Positions 18,008-56,068 of a DNA stretch of 64,000 nucleotides are shown piece after piece. The stretch is taken from contig JBAXTI010000001.1 of the NCBI GenBank assembly GCA_037130265.1, positions 325,765-389,764 on the forward strand, written 5' to 3'. The stretch's first letter is position 1, and each line of letters begins with the position of its first letter. The translations under genes and the position numbers were made by a program. The notes beneath the pieces were generated by a model. That model saw only the letters and a list, made by a program, of their open reading frames with translations. It did not search any database and had not been told where the DNA came from. Source of the stretch: a bacterium (lineage in GTDB: Bacteria; Patescibacteriota; Minisyncoccia; Phycocordibacterales; JBBTRF01).

Positions 18008-21000
18008 ATGAAATCGCCGAAATCACCTTTGGGTGCGCCGAAACCGCTGCCGCCGTACGACCACATGTCCATTGAATCAAAATGGCAAAAGCAGTGGGCG
18101 AAGAAAAAGATATACGCCACCAAGGAAGACGCGAAGAAGGACGCCTTCTATGTCCTCGACATGTTCCCGTATCCGTCCGGTGAAGGTCTCCACGTGGGTC
18201 ATCCGAAGGGCTACATCGCTACTGATGTGGTGTCGCGTATGAAGCGTATGCAGGGTCACTCGGTGCTCCACCCGATGGGCTTTGACGCTTTTGGCCTGCC
18301 AGCAGAAAACTACGCGATCAAAATGAAGACCAACCCGGCCATCGCCGTGGAGAAAAATGTGAAGCGATACAAAGAGCAGCTCGAGATGTTTGGTTTTGAC
18401 TATGATTGGTCACGCGAGATAAATACCACCGACCCCGCATACTATAAATGGACGCAGTGGATCTTTTTGAAGCTGCTCGAAAAAGGTCTCGCATATGAGT
18501 CTCATGAGCCGATCAACTGGTGCCCTTCCTGCAAGACCGGACTTGCCAACGAAGACCTCGAGGATGGCAAGTGTGAGCGCTGCGGCAGTGTCGTGGAGAA
18601 AAAGCCGATTCGCCAGTGGGTGTTGAAAATCACCGATTACGCGGAACGACTTCTTGCGGATTTGGATGCAACCGAAAAGCCTTTAATGATCCGTGACACG
18701 GGTCCAGATGCCGTGCGTCCTGGCATGCCATTAGAGGAGCGAAATGCGGTGGTCTGTGTGGTGAAGCATTGGTCTGAAGACAAGTTCCTCTGCTTGCGCT
18801 GGAAGAGTAATGATTGGCACGGACTCGTAGTCGGCGGCGTCGAAAAGGGCGAGCAACTCGCCGAAGCCGCGGTGCGTGAGGTGCGGGAGGAGACAGGCTA
18901 TCAGAATGTTCGCTTTGTCCGCGAATTCGCCAAGCTCGACTCGCAGTTCTACCAGGCGATCAAAAAGGTCAATCGCTTTGCACATTTCACCGGCGTATAC
19001 CTCGAGCTCACGGATGATGCCTGGAAAGATATTGATGAGAAAGAAAAGGCTCTCCATGAGGTGGTGTGGTTGTCGCGCGCTGAAGTTGCTGGTTTCTTGA
19101 ATCGTCCAGACATGAACTATCTCTGGGATGTCTTTGTCGGCAAAGTAAAGGCCGAGCAGCCCGCACTCGATTGGCCAACCTCTATTAAAGAGCTCCAGCG
19201 AAATTGGATCGGCAAGAGTGACGGTATGATTTTTACCGCACCGGTAAAGGACACAAATCTCACGATTCAGACCTTCTCCGCGCACTTTGAGGCCTGCTAC
19301 GCCGATACGTTTGTCGTGATCGCTCCGGATCATCCATTTTTGTCGACCTTGCTCGAAGGTACAAAAGATAAACAGAAAGTGCTCGATTTTTGTGCGGCTC
19401 TTGTGGCGAAGCGTGCACAGCAGGGTTTTGCAGAAGAAAAAGAATCTGAGGGTATTTTTACTGGCCGATACATTGTCGATCCACTTGGCAACGGTGACCT
19501 GCCCATCTGGGTGGCAAGCTTTGCTTTGGCGGACTACGGAACCGGTATCGTGAAGTGTTCTGCTCACGACGACCGCGACTTTGCTTTTGCGAAGAAGTAC
19601 GGCATTAAGATGAAGACTGTTTTGTATCCAAAAGATGCAGTGCTGGCTGAAAAGGTGAGTGCTCAGGAGGTGTGCTTTGCCGATGCGCAGGCCGGTGTTT
19701 TGAGTGAGCCGAAAGAATTTGCTGGCAAGAACGCACGAAGTGTGCGAAAGGAAATTATTGCTCACCTCGAATCAAAAAACCTCGCCAAAAAGAAAACTAC
19801 CTACCGCCTCCGCGACTGGGTGTTCTCCCGCCAGCGATATTGGGGTGAGCCGATCCCTGTGGTGCATTGTGAGAAGTGCGGAGTCGTTCCTGTCCCAGAA
19901 AAGGACCTTCCTGTGAAGCTCCCGAAAGTGAAATCATATGAGCCGACTGGCACAGGTGAGTCGCCTTTGGCTGCTATCGAGAAGTGGGTGAACACGAAGT
20001 GTCCGAAATGTAGAAGTAAAAAGGTAAACGGCGTGCGTCCGAAAGCTCGGCGCGAAACCAACACCATGCCTCAATGGGCGGGTTCGAGCTGGTACTACTT
20101 GCGATACATGGATGCACAAAATAAAAAAGCTCTGGTCAGTCCTGATGCAGAGCAGTATTGGGCACCTGTAGACCTCTATGTCGGCGGGGCAGAACACGCG
20201 ACTCGACACCTCATCTACGCGCGCTTCTGGCACAAGTTCCTGTACGACATCGGTGCGGTATCGACCACGGAACCTTTCAAGAAGCTCCAACATGTCGGCC
20301 TCATCATGGCAGAGGATGGACGAAAAATGTCGAAGCGCTGGGGTAACGTTGTGAATCCAGACGAAATCATCGCCACCTACGGCGCGGATACTTTGCGCGT
20401 GTACGAAATGTTCATGGGACCTTTTGATCAGCAGATTGCGTGGAACACGAACAGCATGATTGGCTCGCGCCGCTTCTTGGAGCGCGTGTGGAAATTGGTT
20501 GGAAAGGTGCAGGTTGGTTCGGCTGCATCATCAACTGGTGCGTCTTCGACCGAGGTAGAATCCTTACTTCACAAAACTGTCAAAAAGGTGGCGGCGGACA
20601 TTGCGGACATGAAATTCAACACGGCGATCAGTACGCTGATGATCTTGCTCAATGCTTTGGATGAGCAGCCTGCCGGTGTATCTCGCGAGCAGTATGAAAC
20701 CTTCCTAAAACTCCTCGCGCCGTTTGCGCCGCATATGACGGAAGAGCTTTGGGCACAGCTGGGAAATAAAACCACTGTTCATCTCGCGTCGTGGCCGGTG
20801 TGCGATGAGGCAAAGATTCAGGAGGCGAGTCGCAAGATTGGTGTGCAGGTGAACGGCAAGGTCCGTGCGGAATTCGAAGCACCAGGCGGAGCATCGGACG
20901 CCGAACTCGAAAAACTCGCACTCGCGTTGCCAGAAGTACAGAAGTGGGTCGCGGGCAAGCAGGTGAAAAAAGTGATTGTTGTAAAAGGAAAACTAGTGAG

Positions 21001-21019
21001 TGTCGTGGTGGCGGAATAG
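18008..21019 (+). CDS. leuS: Leucine--tRNA ligase with an inserted Nudix hydrolase domain
   Basis: HIGH-type motif HVGHPKGY, Zn-binding CPSCKTGLANEDLEDGKCERCG, RNWIGKSDG, CP1 editing domain, KMSKR (KMSKS) and anticodon-binding/C-terminal domains. Residues ~221-387 carry a perfect Nudix box GGVEKGEQLAEAAVREVREETGY. Confidence 0.9.
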   Translation: MKSPKSPLGAPKPLPPYDHMSIESKWQKQWAKKKIYATKEDAKKDAFYVLDMFPYPSGEGLHVGHPKGYIATDVVSRMKRMQGHSVLHPMGFDAFGLPAENYAIKMKTNPAIAVEKNVKRYKEQLEMFGFDYDWSREINTTDPAYYKWTQWIFLKLLEKGLAYESHEPINWCPSCKTGLANEDLEDGKCERCGSVVEKKPIRQWVLKITDYAERLLADLDATEKPLMIRDTGPDAVRPGMPLEERNAVVCVVKHWSEDKFLCLRWKSNDWHGLVVGGVEKGEQLAEAAVREVREETGYQNVRFVREFAKLDSQFYQAIKKVNRFAHFTGVYLELTDDAWKDIDEKEKALHEVVWLSRAEVAGFLNRPDMNYLWDVFVGKVKAEQPALDWPTSIKELQRNWIGKSDGMIFTAPVKDTNLTIQTFSAHFEACYADTFVVIAPDHPFLSTLLEGTKDKQKVLDFCAALVAKRAQQGFAEEKESEGIFTGRYIVDPLGNGDLPIWVASFALADYGTGIVKCSAHDDRDFAFAKKYGIKMKTVLYPKDAVLAEKVSAQEVCFADAQAGVLSEPKEFAGKNARSVRKEIIAHLESKNLAKKKTTYRLRDWVFSRQRYWGEPIPVVHCEKCGVVPVPEKDLPVKLPKVKSYEPTGTGESPLAAIEKWVNTKCPKCRSKKVNGVRPKARRETNTMPQWAGSSWYYLRYMDAQNKKALVSPDAEQYWAPVDLYVGGAEHATRHLIYARFWHKFLYDIGAVSTTEPFKKLQHVGLIMAEDGRKMSKRWGNVVNPDEIIATYGADTLRVYEMFMGPFDQQIAWNTNSMIGSRRFLERVWKLVGKVQVGSAASSTGASSTEVESLLHKTVKKVAADIADMKFNTAISTLMILLNALDEQPAGVSREQYETFLKLLAPFAPHMTEELWAQLGNKTTVHLASWPVCDEAKIQEASRKIGVQVNGKVRAEFEAPGGASDAELEKLALALPEVQKWVAGKQVKKVIVVKGKLVSVVVAE

Positions 21020-42655: not shown

Positions 42656-44680
42656 ATGAAAAAAAGCATTTCCTGGCTTCTTGCAATTGCTCTGTCTTTG
42701 GTCATCGTGTTTTTATGGAGAACAAGTACTCCAGCTGCCGTCGAGGCTCAAACTCTCTCAACTCCGTCAGTCCTCGCTGGCCATGCCTGGTCGTCCAATA
42801 TTGGTTGGGTGAGTTTCAATGGATCAAATGATTCGGGAGGCGGAAGTTCTCATGCGGTAAACAGAGACGCTGCCGGTAATCTCACTGGCTACGCGTGGTC
42901 TTCCAATATTGGTTGGATCAAATTTGGTGGCTTGGACACCGCAACAATACCGACAGTCTCTGCAGCACCTGGTACGCAGCAAATAAATGCGAAAGTGGAC
43001 ACCTCAACCGGACGACTCATCGGCTGGGCTCGGGCGTGTGCGGGGATGAGTGATCCGGTGGGGTGTACGGATGCAGTTCAATCTACTCAGGTCACCGCGG
43101 GAACGAATGGTTTGTCGACATCGTCATCACAAATAATTTTGAATTGGCAGATTGGACTTTTTGAACAGCAGGTTTATGTCACGAATAATACGTCTACCAC
43201 CTTACCCGGACTCCGTATTACATTGGAATCATCACTTCCTTCTGGCACAACTCTTTACTTTGCAAATACTGATAGTAACGGCAAATTTTATTTACAGCAT
43301 AACTATCCCATCTCTCCCGGTCAGACGGTACATATTGTAGCTGAATATTTGAACTTGCTTAGAAATATGCCCCAGACACCTTTGAATTTTTCTGCACAGG
43401 CATTAAATCAAGCCATTTTAGAACCCGTTTTGCCAGTAGGTAGTACTTTGATTAATACAATTCCTTCAAGCTCCATTTTATATCCCAATAACGCTTGGAC
43501 CACCCTTCCACACAAGTTGATATTTTGGAGTACATCGAGTCTGCTATTAGGTGAAAAAATAGCAATACAGTATAGCGATGATAACGGGGTTACTTGGCCT
43601 ACTTATTTTGGTAAGGGGATGAGTATACATGTAATTGATGCACCGACGCCGAATGTGGTCGATTATGGTGCTCCCCATACCATGGTTCCACCTCCGGAAA
43701 ATCGAATGTATAAGGTCTATAAATTACCTGTGGATACTTATCCTGCAAGAGATGGGGGATCGACATATAATCCTAGTTTAACTACTTTATTGACACTTCC
43801 CTCTACTATCGACCCTCGCGGAGGCTGGCGCGGTTGGATTAGCTTGAGTAGCACTGCTGATTCTGGAAATTACGGCGTCCAGCTCGAATCTAACGGCCAA
43901 TATTCTGGATATGCATGGGGATCAGATGTCATCGGTTGGATGCAGTTTACCCCGACAGTGCCCGGTGGCGGGGGTGGTGGGCCAACCTGCCCCGGTGTCT
44001 GCGAAACCGCCAAAACACTTTCCCTCACCTGCGCCACACGTGTAGCCGAGAGCACGGCCGGAAGCTGGACATGGACCGCTACCATCTCGAGTGTCTTTAA
44101 GGGTACTGCCCCATATACATTCAGCTGGATACCTCCGGGTGGCACAACCTCGACACAACAGCCTTTGTTCACTCCAACCACAGGTGCACCTATCAGCGCT
44201 TCTTTCACCACTCCCGCAACCTCTGAACAATTCCCAATGGTCTCGGTCGCAGATACACAAGGATACACCTCCCAACCCATCGCCTGTTCATCTGTTCCTG
44301 TACAGGTACTCCTACCTAGTGTTGAGTTCGGCGGAGTTGCAATTCCAAGTACCAATTCTTCCGAACCAACCACCCCATCTTCGTATCGAAACGCATTCAG
44401 TATGCAACGAGGAAAGGTGGTTGCGCTGAGATATGATGTCTCTGGCGGAAACACAGACGACACCTATCGCATTACGCAATCATTTCAGGGTGTAACAGGT
44501 GATTTGCTCCCAAGCACTGCTGTTCTTTCTGGGGTGCAAACCAAAAAAACCGCTGCACTCAACACAAACGGAGTCTATACCTACACCCTCAAGATCTTCT
44601 CGAAGGATGCCGTTAATCCTAAGACCACTTCGGTAGTCACCGTCACAGTTCGCAATGACCCAGACCTCAATGAATTCTAG
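42656..44680 (+). CDS. Large secreted/cell-surface protein with G(Y/H)AWSSNIGW(I/V) repeats
   Basis: Signal anchor MKKSISWLLAIALSLVIVFLW, three copies of the GxAWSSNIGW motif, a Gly6 run, a Cys-containing segment and Thr/Ser/Pro-rich regions. No enzymatic domain is recognised. Confidence 0.5.
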   Translation: MKKSISWLLAIALSLVIVFLWRTSTPAAVEAQTLSTPSVLAGHAWSSNIGWVSFNGSNDSGGGSSHAVNRDAAGNLTGYAWSSNIGWIKFGGLDTATIPTVSAAPGTQQINAKVDTSTGRLIGWARACAGMSDPVGCTDAVQSTQVTAGTNGLSTSSSQIILNWQIGLFEQQVYVTNNTSTTLPGLRITLESSLPSGTTLYFANTDSNGKFYLQHNYPISPGQTVHIVAEYLNLLRNMPQTPLNFSAQALNQAILEPVLPVGSTLINTIPSSSILYPNNAWTTLPHKLIFWSTSSLLLGEKIAIQYSDDNGVTWPTYFGKGMSIHVIDAPTPNVVDYGAPHTMVPPPENRMYKVYKLPVDTYPARDGGSTYNPSLTTLLTLPSTIDPRGGWRGWISLSSTADSGNYGVQLESNGQYSGYAWGSDVIGWMQFTPTVPGGGGGGPTCPGVCETAKTLSLTCATRVAESTAGSWTWTATISSVFKGTAPYTFSWIPPGGTTSTQQPLFTPTTGAPISASFTTPATSEQFPMVSVADTQGYTSQPIACSSVPVQVLLPSVEFGGVAIPSTNSSEPTTPSSYRNAFSMQRGKVVALRYDVSGGNTDDTYRITQSFQGVTGDLLPSTAVLSGVQTKKTAALNTNGVYTYTLKIFSKDAVNPKTTSVVTVTVRNDPDLNEF

Positions 44681-51079: not shown

Positions 51080-54000
51080 TTGCTGTTTTGTGCCATTTCT
51101 CTGGCACCTTCCATGCTTGATATTCTCAACACAATTGGGGCCGCCATCATCACCGCTTTCTCTAGCATCGCCCTATTGTTTTCCGCCTCCACAGCACCAG
51201 CTGCAGTAGTGGTCTCCCAGCAGGGAACCACCGCATCTTCTGTTTCCTCGTCCACCCTCGCCGTCACCACCGACTCGGGTACCGCCTCCACCACCGTTTT
51301 TAACACATACATCACGCAGCCCGTCATCGAACGCATTGTCGAGCGAGCAGGGGAGACTGCGGCCACCTCTGGCGACTCCTCCACCTTCGTCACCCAACAA
51401 GAATTCACCCAGAAGCTCAACACCCTCTCTGCCACCCTCGGCCGCTCCCTGTATGGCAACTCATACCCAGCACCAAGCACCAACTACGGTGGTGGTGGTG
51501 TGCAGAACATGATCTCGTTGTCCAACAAGATTGATCAACTCACCAACACCGTCATCACCACGCCCACCATCACCGGTGCCACCATCAATGGCGGTACCAT
51601 CTCTGCCACCACTGCTGCCTTCTCTGGTGACGCCACCCTCTCCTCCACCACCGCCTCCTCCCTCACCGTCACCGGCCTATCATCTTTCGCAGGTCTCACC
51701 ACCCTCGGATACGCCTCCACCACCCAAATCGGCTCAACTGGCTCGGCATACTTTGCCACCAGTGGCGGCTCAGTGGGTATCGGCACCACCTCTCCCTCAG
51801 ACCTCCTTGCAGTGAATGGTGCGGTATACCTGGCCGCCACCACCCCTGCTGTCACTTCCAACCGCCTGTACAACAGCTCAGGTGATCTATACTGGGGAGG
51901 CAACCTCGTGTCAGGCGCTGCTGTCGGCACCTGGACATCGACTTCAGGCAATGTATATCGTCCGACGGGGAATGTGGGGATCGGTACTACCTCTCCATGG
52001 CGTGCACTTTCCGTGAACGGTTCCTCTGACCTTGGCAACAATGCTTTGGCAGGATCCTTCACCTCTACGACCACAACAGCTACCTCTACGTTTGCCGGAG
52101 GTTTCTCTGCCGCGAGCTCTACTTTCAACATCTTGAATCACAATGGGTATGTGGGGATTGGGACGACTACTCCAAAAAGAATGTTGCATCTTTCTAGTGT
52201 TACCTCAGCCACGGATCAGATGATTCGTGCTGAAAGTTCTGTTTCAACTAACGGTGCAACTATTCTGACCATGAATGATGTTGGCGATATATTTCAATTC
52301 GTAATGAATGGTTCAAATATTGGGAACGGATTTGTTTCAACAACAAACAACGCAGCCAGATTGCAATCTACAGGTGCTGGTGGAATGATTCTTAATACCA
52401 CTAACGCTAGTGCACCTATTGTTTTTGGAACAGGAGGCGTTGCGCTTGCAAATGAAAGGATGAGGCTCACAAGTACTGGTAATCTTGGTATCGGTACGTC
52501 CACTCCCGGCCAGAAACTTTCGGTGGCGGGGGACATTTTGGGGAACAATATTATCGGCTCGTATTTCACGGCGACTTCGACGATCGCATCTTCGACTCTT
52601 TCTACCGGAGGGCTCGCAATCGGCACGTCGCAGTTTGTGGTACAGCAGAATAGTGGGCGAGTGGGCATTGGTATCGCAAATCCAACCGAGAAACTGCACG
52701 TAACTGGCTTGAGGACAAACAATTCTGCCAGAATTCTTGTTACTGATGAAAATGGGGCGATAGCTCGACTGAATGCAGATGGGTATAACAACGGCACTGA
52801 TGCTGCTGCCAATCTTTTCTTGTCTGGAGATGGAAATCAGGGAATTAAAATGGTTTCCGGCGGGGTGTCCTCTTATATAACAGCAGGTTCAACAGGTGTG
52901 AGTATTACTGGTGCGGGAACGGGCTACGGCCTAACTCTTGCTGGGCCAACTAACACTCTCGGAGGAACGCTAAGTACCGACTCGAGCGGTTCGAGTGTTT
53001 GGGTGCCGCTCACAATTACTGCGAATGATAGCCAGGCAACAAACGTACTTTCAGTCGGCAAATCATCTTCAGCCGGTTCTTATTTATTGATGAATTCTTC
53101 GGGTAATCTTGGCATCGGCACCACCACCCCCGGCCAGAAGCTTTCGGTGGCGGGGGACATTTTGGGGAACAATATTATCGGCTCGTATTTCACGGCGACT
53201 TCGAGTACGGCGACTTCCACCTTCTTGGGCGGAGCGACCTTTGCGACTGGTGGGGGAAATGTGGGGATTGGGACGGCGACAACGGATGCACTACTTAGTG
53301 TGGTTAGTCCAAACAATGCGGTCGATACAATTTTATCAGTACGAACAAATAATTTATCGCAAGGTGTCGGGATTGGATACTCTTCAATAAGAGCGATTGG
53401 TTCAAGTGCAAACGTTGATTTGACAATAGCTGCCAAAGGATCAGGTACTGCGTATCTTGGTGATTCTGGAAACGGCTTTTTTGTGAGCCCGAGTGTTGCT
53501 GGAGCAAGTATAAGTACAAATGGTATAACCAGATTCAGTCTAATTGACGGTGTTGCAGCATTTGCGACGGATGGTTTCTCTATAACCGCAAACAGCGCAA
53601 CAGCCGCGACTATTATGGGCGGCAACGTCGGCATCGGAACAGCGAGTCCAGCTGACAAATTACAAGTAACAGGTGGAAATATTTTACTGGACGCTGGCGG
53701 TTCTATACAATTTGGTTCAACTGGTTTAAATAGCGTCGGTATTAAAGGTTATTGGGCTGGTTCCGGTAGCTACATGCACGTGTACTCAGTGGGGGATATT
53801 CGTAACTACTTGGATGCTAATAATAACTCCATTAACAATTTTGAAATCTATGGAAACGTAGCCGAAGGAACAACGGAGGGAGCCTTATTTACAGTTCAAG
53901 ATACAGGAAACGTCGGCATCGGCACCACCACCCCATACGCAAAACTTTCTCTTAGCGCCAACCACACCGGTACTCACAACCCAACACTCTTTGCTATCGC

Positions 54001-56068
54001 CTCAAGTACCGGTGGCACCTCAACCACCACCGCCTTTACGGTGTTGGCGAATGGAAATGTGGGCATCGGGACGTCGAGTCCGGCAGACAAGCTCGATGTG
54101 GCTGGATTTATAAAAACTGCGAAAATCCCTTTTGCAACCAATACTGCCTTAACAGCGGTAACAACAAGAGCCATGTCTTCTGTGGAATATAAAGGCAAGC
54201 TTTACGTTGGAACTTCAGATGGCAATGTGTATGTCTACGATGGATCAACATGGACATTTTCTTATAACAATGGATCGGGCCCAGTAATCGGGTTAGTGGT
54301 TTACAATGGAAATCTGTATGCAGCTTTTCAGAATGTGGGTGTAATTTCTTTTAATGGAAGTACTTGGGGCTCAGCCTTAGGGTCGCTGCCAACTTATATC
54401 TATCAAATGGCTGTTTATAATAGCAAGCTTTACGTGTCTATTTATGATGGTGGTGCAAGTCAAGTGAAGATGTATACCTTTGACGATACTTCTTGGGTTG
54501 AGTTGACAAATATTCCGTATTATCACAGCGCGGATCAGTATGGCATTAGAACCCTAGCTGTCTATAACGGGAAATTGTACGGTGGAAATGGTCTAGGAGA
54601 GGTATACGCTTTTGATGGTTCAAGCTGGGCACTCTTGACTGACTTAGGAGCATTTAGCATTACAACTTTTGGGACATACAAAGGGAAATTGTTTGCAAGT
54701 GGTGGTGGCAATGTGTATTCATTTGATGGAAGCACGTGGTCCTCATCTTTATACTCAACCGGATATCAGATAAACAGTTTTGTTGAATATGCTGGAAAGC
54801 TATATATTGGGGCTGCCAACGGAAATCCAGCTATTTATATGGTTTCCTACGACGGAAACTCGTTTACCGCAGAGACATCTGTGAATGCTTCGTTTACTGA
54901 TTATATAACTTCAGGTACGGTGTATAACGGAAAATTATATATGACAGGATCGTCGGCTCTAATGTATTCCGAACGTCTCGAATCGCAACTTGCGAAGGCG
55001 TATGATCCGACCCTAGTTCCATTCAATGAGCAGTATCAGAATTTCACCAAGAATCTTACCGTGACGGGCAACGTCGGCATCGGCACCACTTCTCCCGCCG
55101 CCCGCCTCTCCGTCACCCAATCCGCCAACACCAACGCCGGCGGCCTCTGGCTCGCCGGCACTGATGGCGACTATCGCGCCATCTACATGTCCGACACCAG
55201 CGGTACCCTCTCCTTCAACGGTGGAGACAATGCGGGCACCCTCAATACCGCGAGCCTCAACTCTGCCGGAGCCTGGATCAACGCTTCAGACCGCTCATAC
55301 AAGGAGAACATCGTTGATTTCTCCACCAAATACACCCTCGATGACATCATGAAGCTCGAACCTCGCTTCTACACCATGAAAGGCACCGGCAAGCCACAAA
55401 TCGGCTTCATCGCTCAAGAAGTGAAGCTGGTTATCCCTGAAGTGGTGGAAGGCGTGGACGGCTCCATGGGTGTCTCCTACGGCAACATGGTGGCCATTGC
55501 AATCCAGGGGATTAAGGAGTTGAATACGACCCTGCGCGAAGTGGGAACAAAGATCGCAGGGTTTGCGGATAAGATCATGTCAAGAGAAATCGTTGTTTCT
55601 GAAAGAATCTGCATCAACACCACCTGTGTCACTGAAGATCAGCTGAAATTACTCCTGAAAAATGCCGCTGCTCTCGCTTCAACTCCGGCTTCGACCCCGA
55701 CCCAAAGCTCGTCTGGCGATACCGCCACCACAACACTCGACACCACCGCCCCAGTCATTACACTCAATGGCAATAACCCTGCTCAAATAGAGAAGAATGC
55801 CAGCTATCTTGATCTCGGTGCGACCGTTACAGATAACGTGAGTCTGAACCTTGGCTATCTGACCACAGGTGACCAGATCGATACCACCGTCCCAGGGACT
55901 TACACCGTGACTTACACCGCCACCGACGTTGCCGGCAACACGGCTACCGCTTCGCGCACGGTGATTGTCTCTGATCCTGCGGCGCCAGCGCCCGTTGACC
56001 CTGCACCCACCGAGAGTGCCCCAGCTCCAGTCGACCCTGCACCAACACCCATTGAAGTAGCACCGTAG
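51080..56068 (+). CDS. Giant (1662 aa) surface protein: fibre-like Gly/Thr/Ser repeats, beta-propeller, Peptidase_S74 intramolecular-chaperone domain, Ig-like domain and Pro-rich tail
   Basis: N-terminal TM/signal anchor (the start may be the ATG at 51113). More than ten G(N/Y)VGIGTTSP(x)KL(S/H)V motifs. A YNGKLY/FDGS(S/T)W repeat set forms a ~6-7-blade propeller. S74 motif SDRSYKENIV...GFIAQEV...PEVV...IQGIKEL. Ig-like segment GTYTVTYTATDVAGNTATASRTVIV. Tail PAAPAPVDPAPTESAPAPVDPAPT. Confidence 0.6.
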   Translation: MLFCAISLAPSMLDILNTIGAAIITAFSSIALLFSASTAPAAVVVSQQGTTASSVSSSTLAVTTDSGTASTTVFNTYITQPVIERIVERAGETAATSGDSSTFVTQQEFTQKLNTLSATLGRSLYGNSYPAPSTNYGGGGVQNMISLSNKIDQLTNTVITTPTITGATINGGTISATTAAFSGDATLSSTTASSLTVTGLSSFAGLTTLGYASTTQIGSTGSAYFATSGGSVGIGTTSPSDLLAVNGAVYLAATTPAVTSNRLYNSSGDLYWGGNLVSGAAVGTWTSTSGNVYRPTGNVGIGTTSPWRALSVNGSSDLGNNALAGSFTSTTTTATSTFAGGFSAASSTFNILNHNGYVGIGTTTPKRMLHLSSVTSATDQMIRAESSVSTNGATILTMNDVGDIFQFVMNGSNIGNGFVSTTNNAARLQSTGAGGMILNTTNASAPIVFGTGGVALANERMRLTSTGNLGIGTSTPGQKLSVAGDILGNNIIGSYFTATSTIASSTLSTGGLAIGTSQFVVQQNSGRVGIGIANPTEKLHVTGLRTNNSARILVTDENGAIARLNADGYNNGTDAAANLFLSGDGNQGIKMVSGGVSSYITAGSTGVSITGAGTGYGLTLAGPTNTLGGTLSTDSSGSSVWVPLTITANDSQATNVLSVGKSSSAGSYLLMNSSGNLGIGTTTPGQKLSVAGDILGNNIIGSYFTATSSTATSTFLGGATFATGGGNVGIGTATTDALLSVVSPNNAVDTILSVRTNNLSQGVGIGYSSIRAIGSSANVDLTIAAKGSGTAYLGDSGNGFFVSPSVAGASISTNGITRFSLIDGVAAFATDGFSITANSATAATIMGGNVGIGTASPADKLQVTGGNILLDAGGSIQFGSTGLNSVGIKGYWAGSGSYMHVYSVGDIRNYLDANNNSINNFEIYGNVAEGTTEGALFTVQDTGNVGIGTTTPYAKLSLSANHTGTHNPTLFAIASSTGGTSTTTAFTVLANGNVGIGTSSPADKLDVAGFIKTAKIPFATNTALTAVTTRAMSSVEYKGKLYVGTSDGNVYVYDGSTWTFSYNNGSGPVIGLVVYNGNLYAAFQNVGVISFNGSTWGSALGSLPTYIYQMAVYNSKLYVSIYDGGASQVKMYTFDDTSWVELTNIPYYHSADQYGIRTLAVYNGKLYGGNGLGEVYAFDGSSWALLTDLGAFSITTFGTYKGKLFASGGGNVYSFDGSTWSSSLYSTGYQINSFVEYAGKLYIGAANGNPAIYMVSYDGNSFTAETSVNASFTDYITSGTVYNGKLYMTGSSALMYSERLESQLAKAYDPTLVPFNEQYQNFTKNLTVTGNVGIGTTSPAARLSVTQSANTNAGGLWLAGTDGDYRAIYMSDTSGTLSFNGGDNAGTLNTASLNSAGAWINASDRSYKENIVDFSTKYTLDDIMKLEPRFYTMKGTGKPQIGFIAQEVKLVIPEVVEGVDGSMGVSYGNMVAIAIQGIKELNTTLREVGTKIAGFADKIMSREIVVSERICINTTCVTEDQLKLLLKNAAALASTPASTPTQSSSGDTATTTLDTTAPVITLNGNNPAQIEKNASYLDLGATVTDNVSLNLGYLTTGDQIDTTVPGTYTVTYTATDVAGNTATASRTVIVSDPAAPAPVDPAPTESAPAPVDPAPTPIEVAP
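52478..52580. repeat. Internal direct repeat copy 1 (~100 bp; encodes GNLGIGTSTPGQKLSVAGDILGNNIIGSYFTATS)
   Basis: Near-identical at the nucleotide level to 53102..53205, inside the giant gene. Confidence 0.7.
53102..53205. repeat. Internal direct repeat copy 2 (~100 bp)
   Basis: About 95% identical to 52478..52580 and in the same reading frame. Confidence 0.7.

Follow-up and report, generated by a model that had tools for sequence, protein, structure and literature searches.

An internal Peptidase_S74 chaperone domain followed by additional domains in a large, putatively secreted protein of Patescibacteria

The 64,000-nucleotide stretch of DNA analysed here (referred to below as the window) encodes a large protein with a genuine domain of the Peptidase_S74 type, also termed intramolecular chaperone auto-processing (ICA), that is located well upstream of the C terminus, an internal layout that is uncommon but has a precedent in the animal protein MYRF. 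Judging from its sequence, the domain is probably catalytically competent. The interpretation favoured here, and considered likely, is that it functions as a cleaving assembly module within a secreted fibre protein of ~1,650 aa and that the 260-aa fragment that it would release carries extra domains.

Members of Patescibacteria spend their lives attached to other microbes, and, to our knowledge, what has been learned about the machinery on their surfaces goes little further than type IV pili. If cleavage does take place, a large, multicopy family of secreted fibres in these organisms would be matured by a phage-type self-cleaving chaperone, with a conserved Ig-bearing fragment also being shed or repositioned. 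Such a family would add to MYRF a second, independent example of an internal chaperone splitting a protein into two oligomeric parts, and the S1403A substitution would offer a simple handle on fibre assembly in these bacteria. Should the C-terminal tail be a mere solubility aid, the protein would represent a routine domain-architecture variant.

Genomic context and overall organization of the protein

The gene is an open reading frame without interruptions (positions 51080 to 56068 of the window, + strand, as are all the features described below) that codes for 1,662 aa when counted from the first TTG. The same protein is annotated by NCBI as MEI6345989.1, "immunoglobulin-like domain-containing protein," with 1,651 aa and a start at Met12 (nucleotide 51113). 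Its neighbours code for a TyrRS/TrpRS-type synthetase, an ABC transporter, AspRS, ScpA/B, a D-Ala-D-Ala carboxypeptidase, FtsW, MurG, DnaK/J, RpoA, LeuRS, and AlaRS; the AspRS in the window is 79 to 81% identical to proteins from Patescibacteria/Paceibacterota. All neighbours checked across the 64-kb window are housekeeping genes, with no phage structural genes among them. This is a cellular gene, surrounded by housekeeping genes on a Patescibacteria (CPR) chromosome, rather than part of a prophage. Scans of the window for tRNAs and Rfam families returned nothing relevant, and no second copy of S74 was found in it.

The sole hydrophobic segment of the protein detected in the hydropathy scan (aa ~15 to 45, positions 51122 to 51214) is presumed to be a Sec signal peptide or an N-terminal anchor. 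Because its n-region carries no positive charge, this signal makes the export of the fibre protein plausible, short of proof. Several full-length relatives have classical signal peptides at their N termini, and 65 of 116 relatives have a hydrophobic N terminus.

Most of the chain (aa 230 to 1340, positions 51767 to 55099) appears to form the fibre body, which was delineated by a motif scan that revealed 10 copies of the G-x-V-G-I-G-T-x-x-P...L-x-V-x-G motif and by matches to phage tail-fibre profiles, such as that of the PHROG profile phrog_9942 to aa 354 to 510 (E value of 2.9e-18). It includes ~6 to 7 repeats of ~45 aa each, built on the VYNGKLY motif and placed by motif positions only (aa ~1020 to 1320, positions 54137 to 55039), which have no match in Pfam and, by their sequence, look beta-propeller-like. 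Directly upstream of the predicted cleavage site is a 73-aa stalk that ends in AGAWINA and was recognized from its conservation in relatives (aa 1330 to 1402, positions 55067 to 55285). With 62 to 88% identity, the stalk ranks among the top-conserved segments of these proteins (it is the most conserved one in 5 of the 8 compared), and its residues R1366, N1389, W1399, and A1402 are invariant in the alignment of relatives. Modelled as a monomer, it shows short beta-strands with pLDDT values below 50, and tail-fibre PHROG matches are found upstream of it. An NCBIfam search of the protein yielded nothing informative.

The S74/ICA domain and its catalytic dyad

A first-pass annotation, made from the DNA sequence alone, had assigned an S74 motif to positions 55285 to 55620 of the window. 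This assignment was confirmed: the 86-aa peptide that it listed is present exactly at aa 1403 to 1488 (positions 55286 to 55543), and the suggested profile-HMM check returned the Pfam family Peptidase_S74 (PF13884) at aa 1403 to 1456 (E value of 3.4e-10; 40.5 bits versus the cutoff of 22). The boundaries required an adjustment, as the reading frame begins at 55286, one base later than proposed, and the proposed end lies ~77 nucleotides past that peptide. The complete S74/ICA domain occupies aa 1403 to 1501 (positions 55286 to 55582) and consists of the Pfam core and a long C-terminal helix (aa 1467 to 1501) that, according to the structural model, is the equivalent of the trimeric coiled-coil helix.

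The AF2 model of the monomer has a mean pLDDT of 80.8, exceeding 90 in the core. Its top match in the PDB is the ICA domain of MyRF (7dc3; E value of 4.7e-5, probability of 1.0, and TM score of 0.59 to 0.65, with sequence identity of only about 21%), followed by the endoNF chaperone (3gw6). A sequence search of the PDB with the single protein reached only the Ig domain; the S74 structures required the family profile, which matched 7dc3 and also two chains of phage tail-fibre chaperones (8jov and 6f45), with the Ser and Lys residues in register.

The predicted autoproteolytic centre (positions 55283 to 55303) comprises Ala1402 followed by Ser1403-Asp-Arg-Ser-Tyr-Lys1408, with the Ser codon at 55286 to 55288 and the Lys codon at 55301 to 55303. 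The initial proposal that this Ser and the Lys five residues downstream correspond to the catalytic dyad agrees with the alignments: both residues are invariant in the two alignments of relatives, and the profile alignment to 7dc3 places K1408 on K592 and S1403 on an Ala of that chain. This Ala presumably reflects the S587A substitution, which is documented only for the longer 351-717 construct (PMC8326128). The catalytic dyad is S587/K592 in MyRF and S911/K916 in endoNF, and either S587A or K592A eliminates MyRF cleavage altogether (PMC8326128). By analogy with the reported "cleavage at the serine residue" (PMC3742440), the cut in the patescibacterial protein would be expected at Ser1403. As the MyRF dyad mutants are uncleaved and the S587A construct was nonetheless expressed and purified for crystallization (PMC8326128), conservation of the dyad suggests that it is catalysis, rather than folding, that is under selection.

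The C-terminal region downstream of the chaperone domain

The distance from Ser1403 to the stop codon is 260 aa, of which ~160 aa lie beyond the S74/ICA domain. That the domain is not C-terminal had been recognized in the first-pass annotation, which estimated the remainder at ~170 residues (174 follow the listed peptide) and correctly described a linker, an Ig-like domain, and a Pro-rich tail; it missed the chaperone helix, which extends to aa ~1501, and the Cys-x4-Cys hairpin-helix that comes after it.

This latter element, a Cys-x4-Cys beta-hairpin followed by a short helix (aa 1502 to 1531, '...ERICINTTCVTEDQLKLLLKNA', positions 55583 to 55672), was defined from the model and from conservation and has no matching Pfam family. 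Its two cysteines, C1511 and C1516, are invariant, and the mature protein contains no others; they are probably disulphide-bonded. A Ser/Thr/Pro-rich linker (aa 1532 to 1555, positions 55673 to 55744), predicted to be disordered from pLDDT values below 50 and weakly conserved in relatives, connects the hairpin to a Bact_surface_Ig-like domain (PF16403/DUF5011; aa 1556 to 1632, positions 55745 to 55975). The PF16403 match covers aa 1560 to 1630 (E value of 2.5e-14; 53.5 bits versus the cutoff of 27), the model is all-beta with pLDDT values of 71 to 92, and there is a weak sequence similarity to 2kpn. In the relatives, the conservation of this Ig-like domain equals that of the S74 core. The protein ends with a Pro/Ala-rich tail that, by its sequence and the model, is predicted to be disordered (aa 1633 to 1662, positions 55976 to 56065). 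The hydropathy scan revealed no hydrophobic anchor in this tail and no hydrophobic window anywhere beyond aa ~45. In the tails of 86 long-tailed relatives, where a C-terminal sortase-like motif was sought, none was detected, and only 3 of the 86 contain a TM-like segment, which would be the parallel to MYRF.

Distribution among relatives

At the E value threshold of 1e-3, 17,717 library proteins match S74, and the best 150 of these (representatives of 50%-identity clusters) were surveyed, so the counts describe the clade of this protein and not S74 proteins at large. The survey for C-terminal extensions suggested by the first-pass annotation showed that, in these best 150 of 17,717, 86 proteins have at least 170 aa between the Ser residue and the C terminus; the extension is the majority state among the closest relatives. 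Together with the precedent of MYRF/MrfA, this means that the novelty implied by that annotation was overstated. Within the same best 150 of 17,717, the CX4C motif is found in 55 of the 86 long-tailed proteins and an alternative two-Cys motif in 17, an Ig domain follows S74 in 20 of the 86 and precedes it in none, and the long tails without an Ig domain are of low complexity. The dyad is retained in 87 of 90 long-tailed, 13 of 13 intermediate, and 51 of 52 short-tailed domains.

Among named genomes, the extension is present in 20 of 22 patescibacterial loci versus none of the 9 loci from other phyla, where the Ser residue is 99 to 141 aa away from the stop codon (about 94 to 141 aa in terminal versions overall). 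Patescibacterial genomes carry several paralogues each. No conserved neighbouring gene, such as an adjacent ABC exporter that could serve as a dedicated partner, was found in 40 related loci. The literature search for a link between S74/ICA and Patescibacteria returned only unrelated microbiome papers.

The post-chaperone cassette is typical of Patescibacteria and under purifying selection and therefore probably has its own job. As to what this job might be, the most plausible guesses are that the cassette holds or positions the assembling C termini at the cell envelope or that it acts as a released Ig-bearing trimer.

Proposed mechanism and alternative explanations

In the proposed scheme, the chain would be exported via its N-terminal hydrophobic signal, and three chains would come together via the ICA domain, including its long C-terminal helix, templating the folding of the upstream conserved stalk and the repeat-rich fibre. 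Ser1403 and Lys1408 would then cut the chain at Ser1403, producing a mature fibre trimer, each chain of which has about 1,390 residues, and a C-terminal fragment of 260 residues that contains the chaperone, the Cys-x4-Cys hairpin, the flexible linker, the Ig-like domain, and the Pro-rich tail. A more speculative extension of this scheme, which we regard as improbable, is that the cassette is an envelope tether that keeps the C terminus at the cell wall during fibre assembly and that autoproteolysis then frees or repositions the fibre, so that these proteins would be counterparts of MYRF in a bacterial, extracellular setting; if so, ultrasmall episymbionts would possess a self-timed deployment of host-contact fibres.

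The first-pass annotation had offered two options, release of a larger functional C-terminal fragment or co-option of the domain as a non-cleaving trimerization module. The near-equal retention of the dyad in long- and short-tailed domains favours the former. Under the latter, the S74 domain would be a permanent part of the fibre, and the Ig domain with the Pro-rich tail would form its distal tip, e.g., a receptor-binding end. Such an arrangement would fit the good conservation of the Ig domain, the common presence of Ig-like domains at adhesin tips, and the anchor-free tail, which would be a free distal end if the N terminus is anchored; the purified S587A variant of MyRF (PMC8326128) also indicates that the uncleaved state is physically possible. 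However, the dyad that MyRF requires for cleavage is kept in nearly all long-tailed domains, the Ig domain is attached through a disordered and weakly conserved linker rather than rigidly, and the tails, fewer than a quarter of which contain Ig, are much more variable than would be expected of a receptor-binding tip. A permanent, uncleaved module seems unlikely.

Far less probable still is that a tail-fibre gene of a phage or prophage, or a fibre gene of a phage-tail-like particle, happens to be present in a bacterial contig. S74 is chiefly familiar as a domain of the tail spikes and fibres of phages, and PHROG tail-fibre profiles match the protein both in its repeats and in its S74 region. 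The prophage explanation was nevertheless rejected, given the housekeeping neighbours throughout the window, the predicted N-terminal export signal, which is absent from virion proteins, and the phage-collection records, which share no more than the S74 core; moreover, the relatives are paralogues found in several copies per patescibacterial genome. Metagenome-assembled genomes do contain errors, and a tail-like cassette lacking S74 is present in one protein (P0084), so the extension could in principle result from a fusion of two genes by a sequencing or assembly error or from a read-through of a lost stop codon. The chance of this is negligible: the frame is uninterrupted, NCBI calls the same protein, and its modules are found again in this order in no fewer than 20 independent clusters at 50% identity and, across different assemblies, in nearly all the patescibacterial loci, a recurrence that effectively refutes a fusion artefact. 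The cleaving assembly module remains the preferred reading.

Comparison with known systems

The phage chaperones (the endoNF/K1F CIMCD, 3gw6; gp12 of phi29 and GA-1; the long tail fibres of T5 and S16, 6f45) belong to the same Pfam family, PF13884, share the S-D-x-x-x-K register and the fold, including the long C-terminal helix, and likewise come directly after a repeat-rich fibre with similarity to tail-fibre profiles. In phages, as the first-pass annotation had stated, this domain is the extreme C terminus and is discarded: PHROG profiles stop about 10 residues past the match, 287 records in the phage collection match the S74 core only, and, in Streptococcus phage phiARI0399, the match stops one codon short of the stop codon. 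The patescibacterial protein, with its additional hairpin, linker, Ig-like domain, and Pro-rich tail, departs from this phage-type CIMCD arrangement. It is also a cellular protein with a predicted export signal and not, as phage fibres are, a part of the virion.

The closest structural match is MYRF/MrfA (7dc3), for which an S74/ICA domain in an internal position, with further domains after it, has already been established (PMC3742443, PMC3742440, PMC3828593). In MYRF, both fragments are oligomeric, a precedent for an internal ICA domain splitting a protein in two, and the predicted cut in the patescibacterial protein would similarly put the ICA domain at the N terminus of a larger C-terminal fragment. 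The domains that follow, however, are not related between the two proteins, and the setting is bacterial and extracellular rather than the eukaryotic ER membrane: MYRF has a transmembrane segment after the ICA domain, which this protein lacks, and an NDT80/PhoG-type DNA-binding domain, for which this protein has no Pfam match at E values of up to 0.1.

The "tail fiber domain-containing" and other S74 surface proteins of Bacteroidota, Ignavibacteria, Actinomycetes, and other bacteria are, like this one, cellular proteins with long upstream regions followed by S74. In the 9 loci from those bacteria, S74 is terminal, whereas in the Patescibacteria clade the post-ICA cassette has been added to it.

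Internal S74 Domain and Anatomy of the C Terminus

A single long ORF (51080..56068, forward strand), coding for 1662 aa when counted from its first TTG, spans the S74 domain. The identical protein is recorded at NCBI as MEI6345989.1, called from Met12 (1651 aa) on a 464-kb contig of a MAG and named "immunoglobulin-like domain-containing protein", and database pipelines already mark such proteins with both Pfam domains, S74 and Bact_surface_Ig-like. The peptide quoted in the first-pass annotation is found exactly at aa 1403-1488 (nt 55286-55543), with 174 residues C-terminal to it, although the interval reported for it began one base too early, so that it contains stops when translated as given, and ended ∼77 nt beyond the peptide.

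The domain that starts at aa 1403 is a member of the S74/ICA (intramolecular chaperone auto-processing) family by its HMM match, its catalytic dyad, and its fold; this identity, initially proposed from the consensus, is supported by Pfam, phmmer, an AlphaFold2 model, and a family profile. The Peptidase_S74 match (PF13884, aa 1403-1456, E 3.4e-10) scores 40.5 bits, where the curated cut-off is 22, and aa 1393-1543 matched 17,717 proteins at E <= 1e-3 in a phmmer search of 1.84 billion representatives. In the family alignments, S1403, D1404, Y1407, and K1408 are invariant. The model of aa 1381-1531, built from a 28-sequence family alignment, has a mean pLDDT of 80.8 (core >90); its best PDB match is the ICA domain of the animal myelin regulatory factor MyRF (7dc3; E 4.7e-5, probability 1.0, TM 0.59-0.65), followed by the endosialidase chaperone 3gw6. 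The family profile matches the phage tail-fibre chains 8jov and 6f45 as well as 7dc3. In its alignment to 7dc3, Lys1408 falls on K592 and Ser1403 on a position occupied by Ala in the 7dc3 chain, which we read as the S587A substitution, documented only for the longer 351-717 construct.

According to the alignments and models, a conserved 73-aa stalk (aa 1330-1402, ending in AGAWINA) leads up to Ser1403, where the cut is predicted. The ICA domain itself occupies aa 1403-1501 and includes a long helix (aa 1467-1501) equivalent to the coiled-coil helix. Because the Pfam S74 model stops after 54 residues of the chaperone, the real extension past the complete ICA domain is ∼160 residues rather than 174. 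Directly behind the chaperone helix lies a small beta-hairpin-plus-helix module (aa 1502-1531; 55583-55672, forward strand; ERICINTTCVTEDQLKLLLKNA), matched by no Pfam family, with the consensus ELC[IV]xxxC[IV]TxxQLKxLL. The mature protein has no cysteines besides the two invariant ones of this module, which suggests a disulphide. It is followed by an S/T/P linker (aa 1532-1555; disordered in the model), an all-beta Ig-like domain (aa 1556-1632, pLDDT 71-92; PF16403 at aa 1560-1630, E 2.5e-14), and a Pro/Ala-rich tail (aa 1633-1662), also modelled as disordered.

Distribution of the C-Terminal Extension

How rare a nonterminal S74 domain appears depends on the comparison group. In phages, the domain is terminal: PHROG profiles stop ∼10 positions past the match (267-438 of 449, 539-634 of 643, and 232-327 of 343), the matches of 287 phage records are confined to query residues ∼1-113, and none reaches the tail, and in Streptococcus phage phiARI0399 the match stops one codon ahead of the stop. 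Among the closest relatives (the best 150 representatives at 50% identity, of the 17,717 matches), the majority, 86, have at least 170 aa between the Ser and the C terminus (260 aa in the window protein); this distance is <100 aa in 36, 100-130 aa in 16, and 130-170 aa in 12. In named genomes, 20 of the 22 Patescibacteria loci carry 180 aa or more downstream of the Ser, whereas all nine loci from other lineages (Margulisiibacteriota, Ignavibacteriales, Micrarchaeia, three Bacteroidota, Thiotrichaceae, and two Actinomycetes) have 99-141 aa. The post-S74 extension is thus a recurrent, Patescibacteria-typical feature; on account of this recurrence, we reject both a single fusion event and an error of assembly as its origin.

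Among the 86 long tails, the CX4C motif is present in 55 and is replaced in 17 by an alternative YC...GxC motif (in fuller form, G[IV]xxxDxxTGxxYC...NG...GxC); a PF16403-like Ig domain follows S74 in 20 and precedes it in none. Past the domain, 43% of the residues are P, T, S, or E. The protein P0084 (337 aa, encoded outside the window) combines a coiled-coil-like region, a GITVFD...C...GEC motif, a PF16403 Ig domain, and a Pro-rich tail but lacks both the S74 domain and a signal peptide, so the post-chaperone cassette also occurs on its own.

Fibre Body and Genomic Setting

The body of the protein contains ten GxVGIGTxxP...LxVxG motifs and is matched by phage tail-fibre PHROGs. At aa ∼1020-1320 (54137-55039, forward strand), it carries ∼6-7 copies of a ∼45-aa VYNGKLY repeat, a region with no Pfam match that looks like a beta-propeller inserted in the fibre. 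The sole hydrophobic segment is N-terminal (aa ∼15-45); the N terminus is hydrophobic in 65 of 116 relatives, and several full-length relatives start with classical Sec signal peptides. Just behind the signal peptide, relatives P0124, P0128, P0129, P0132, and P0133 share a conserved LLASVYCSTLGSWxxDxxC motif, absent in the window protein, which may be an attachment element.

The neighbouring genes code for AspRS, an ABC transporter, ScpA, ScpB, a D-Ala-D-Ala carboxypeptidase, and a tRNA synthetase of class I and Tyr/Trp type, as well as for FtsW, MurG, DnaK, DnaJ, RpoA, LeuRS, and AlaRS. Since these are housekeeping genes and the AspRS shares 79-81% identity with proteins named Patescibacteria group or Candidatus Paceibacterota, the fibre gene is cellular and belongs to a Patescibacteria (CPR) bacterium, and a prophage origin is rejected. 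No conserved neighbouring gene was found to accompany the relatives in 40 related loci. The window (1-64000) is a gene-dense housekeeping region with coding almost all on a single strand, where no tRNA genes or Rfam families (at the gathering threshold) were detected. Its LeuRS (18008-21019, forward strand, 1003 aa) has a NUDIX match (PF00293, aa 248-360, E 8.2e-13) within the catalytic domain, before the editing domain, an unusual insertion; two ORFs of ∼675 aa each (66-2099 and 42656-44680, both forward strand) match nothing in Pfam at E <= 1e-5.

Cleavage and the Released Fragment

The first-pass annotation offered two readings of the internal domain, self-cleavage that frees a larger C-terminal fragment or a non-cleaving trimerisation module. 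MyRF S587/K592 have been equated with S911/K916 of the phage endosialidase endoNF (PMC8326128); both dyad residues are indispensable for cleavage, which requires the trimer and falls at the serine (PMC8326128, PMC3742440). MyRF carrying S587A or K592A undergoes no cleavage, yet an S587A construct could still be expressed and purified for crystallisation (PMC8326128). Among the relatives, the dyad is kept in 87 of 90 long-tailed, all 13 intermediate, and 51 of 52 short-tailed domains, a retention that, given these mutants, points to catalysis, and not folding, as the property under selection. The stalk immediately before the Ser ranks with the best-conserved segments (62-88% identity; R1366, N1389, W1399, and A1402 invariant), compatible with functional stalk-chaperone coupling as in endoNF. 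Dyad retention and the conserved stalk both favour a cleaving module, which the domain probably is, and hence the release of a larger C-terminal fragment. The first-pass interpretation is thus borne out in part; the novelty ascribed to this layout was overstated, as MYRF provides a precedent and many members of this clade share the layout.

In the putative released fragment, the Ig domain is not decaying sequence, as it is conserved as well as the S74 core (identities of 94% and 84%, respectively, to homolog P0122, 66% and 69% to P0123, 64% and 65% to P0144, and 61% and 46% to P0002), while the linkers between the parts are disordered and variable. A TM-like segment is present in only 3 of the 86 long tails of relatives and a sortase-like motif in none. 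The fragment could serve as a solubility aid, as a trimeric factor set free with its Ig domain, or as an envelope tether during assembly. The last of these, a wall-bound analogue of the MYRF membrane tether, would be the most novel but seems unlikely.

Comparison with Known Systems

The literature searched yielded nothing linking S74/ICA domains with Patescibacteria. What gives the finding its weight is mainly the post-chaperone cassette, which recurs and is typical of Patescibacteria, and the part it may play when episymbiotic bacteria deploy their fibres. In contrast to the phage arrangement, where the domain is terminal, the window protein carries it internally. It lacks both the NDT80 domain and the downstream transmembrane segment of the MYRF family and therefore is not a member. 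It does resemble MYRF in carrying its ICA domain internally: in MYRF, this domain divides the chain into two oligomeric fragments (PMC3742443), and in the window protein it would likewise split the chain, at Ser1403, into two oligomeric parts.
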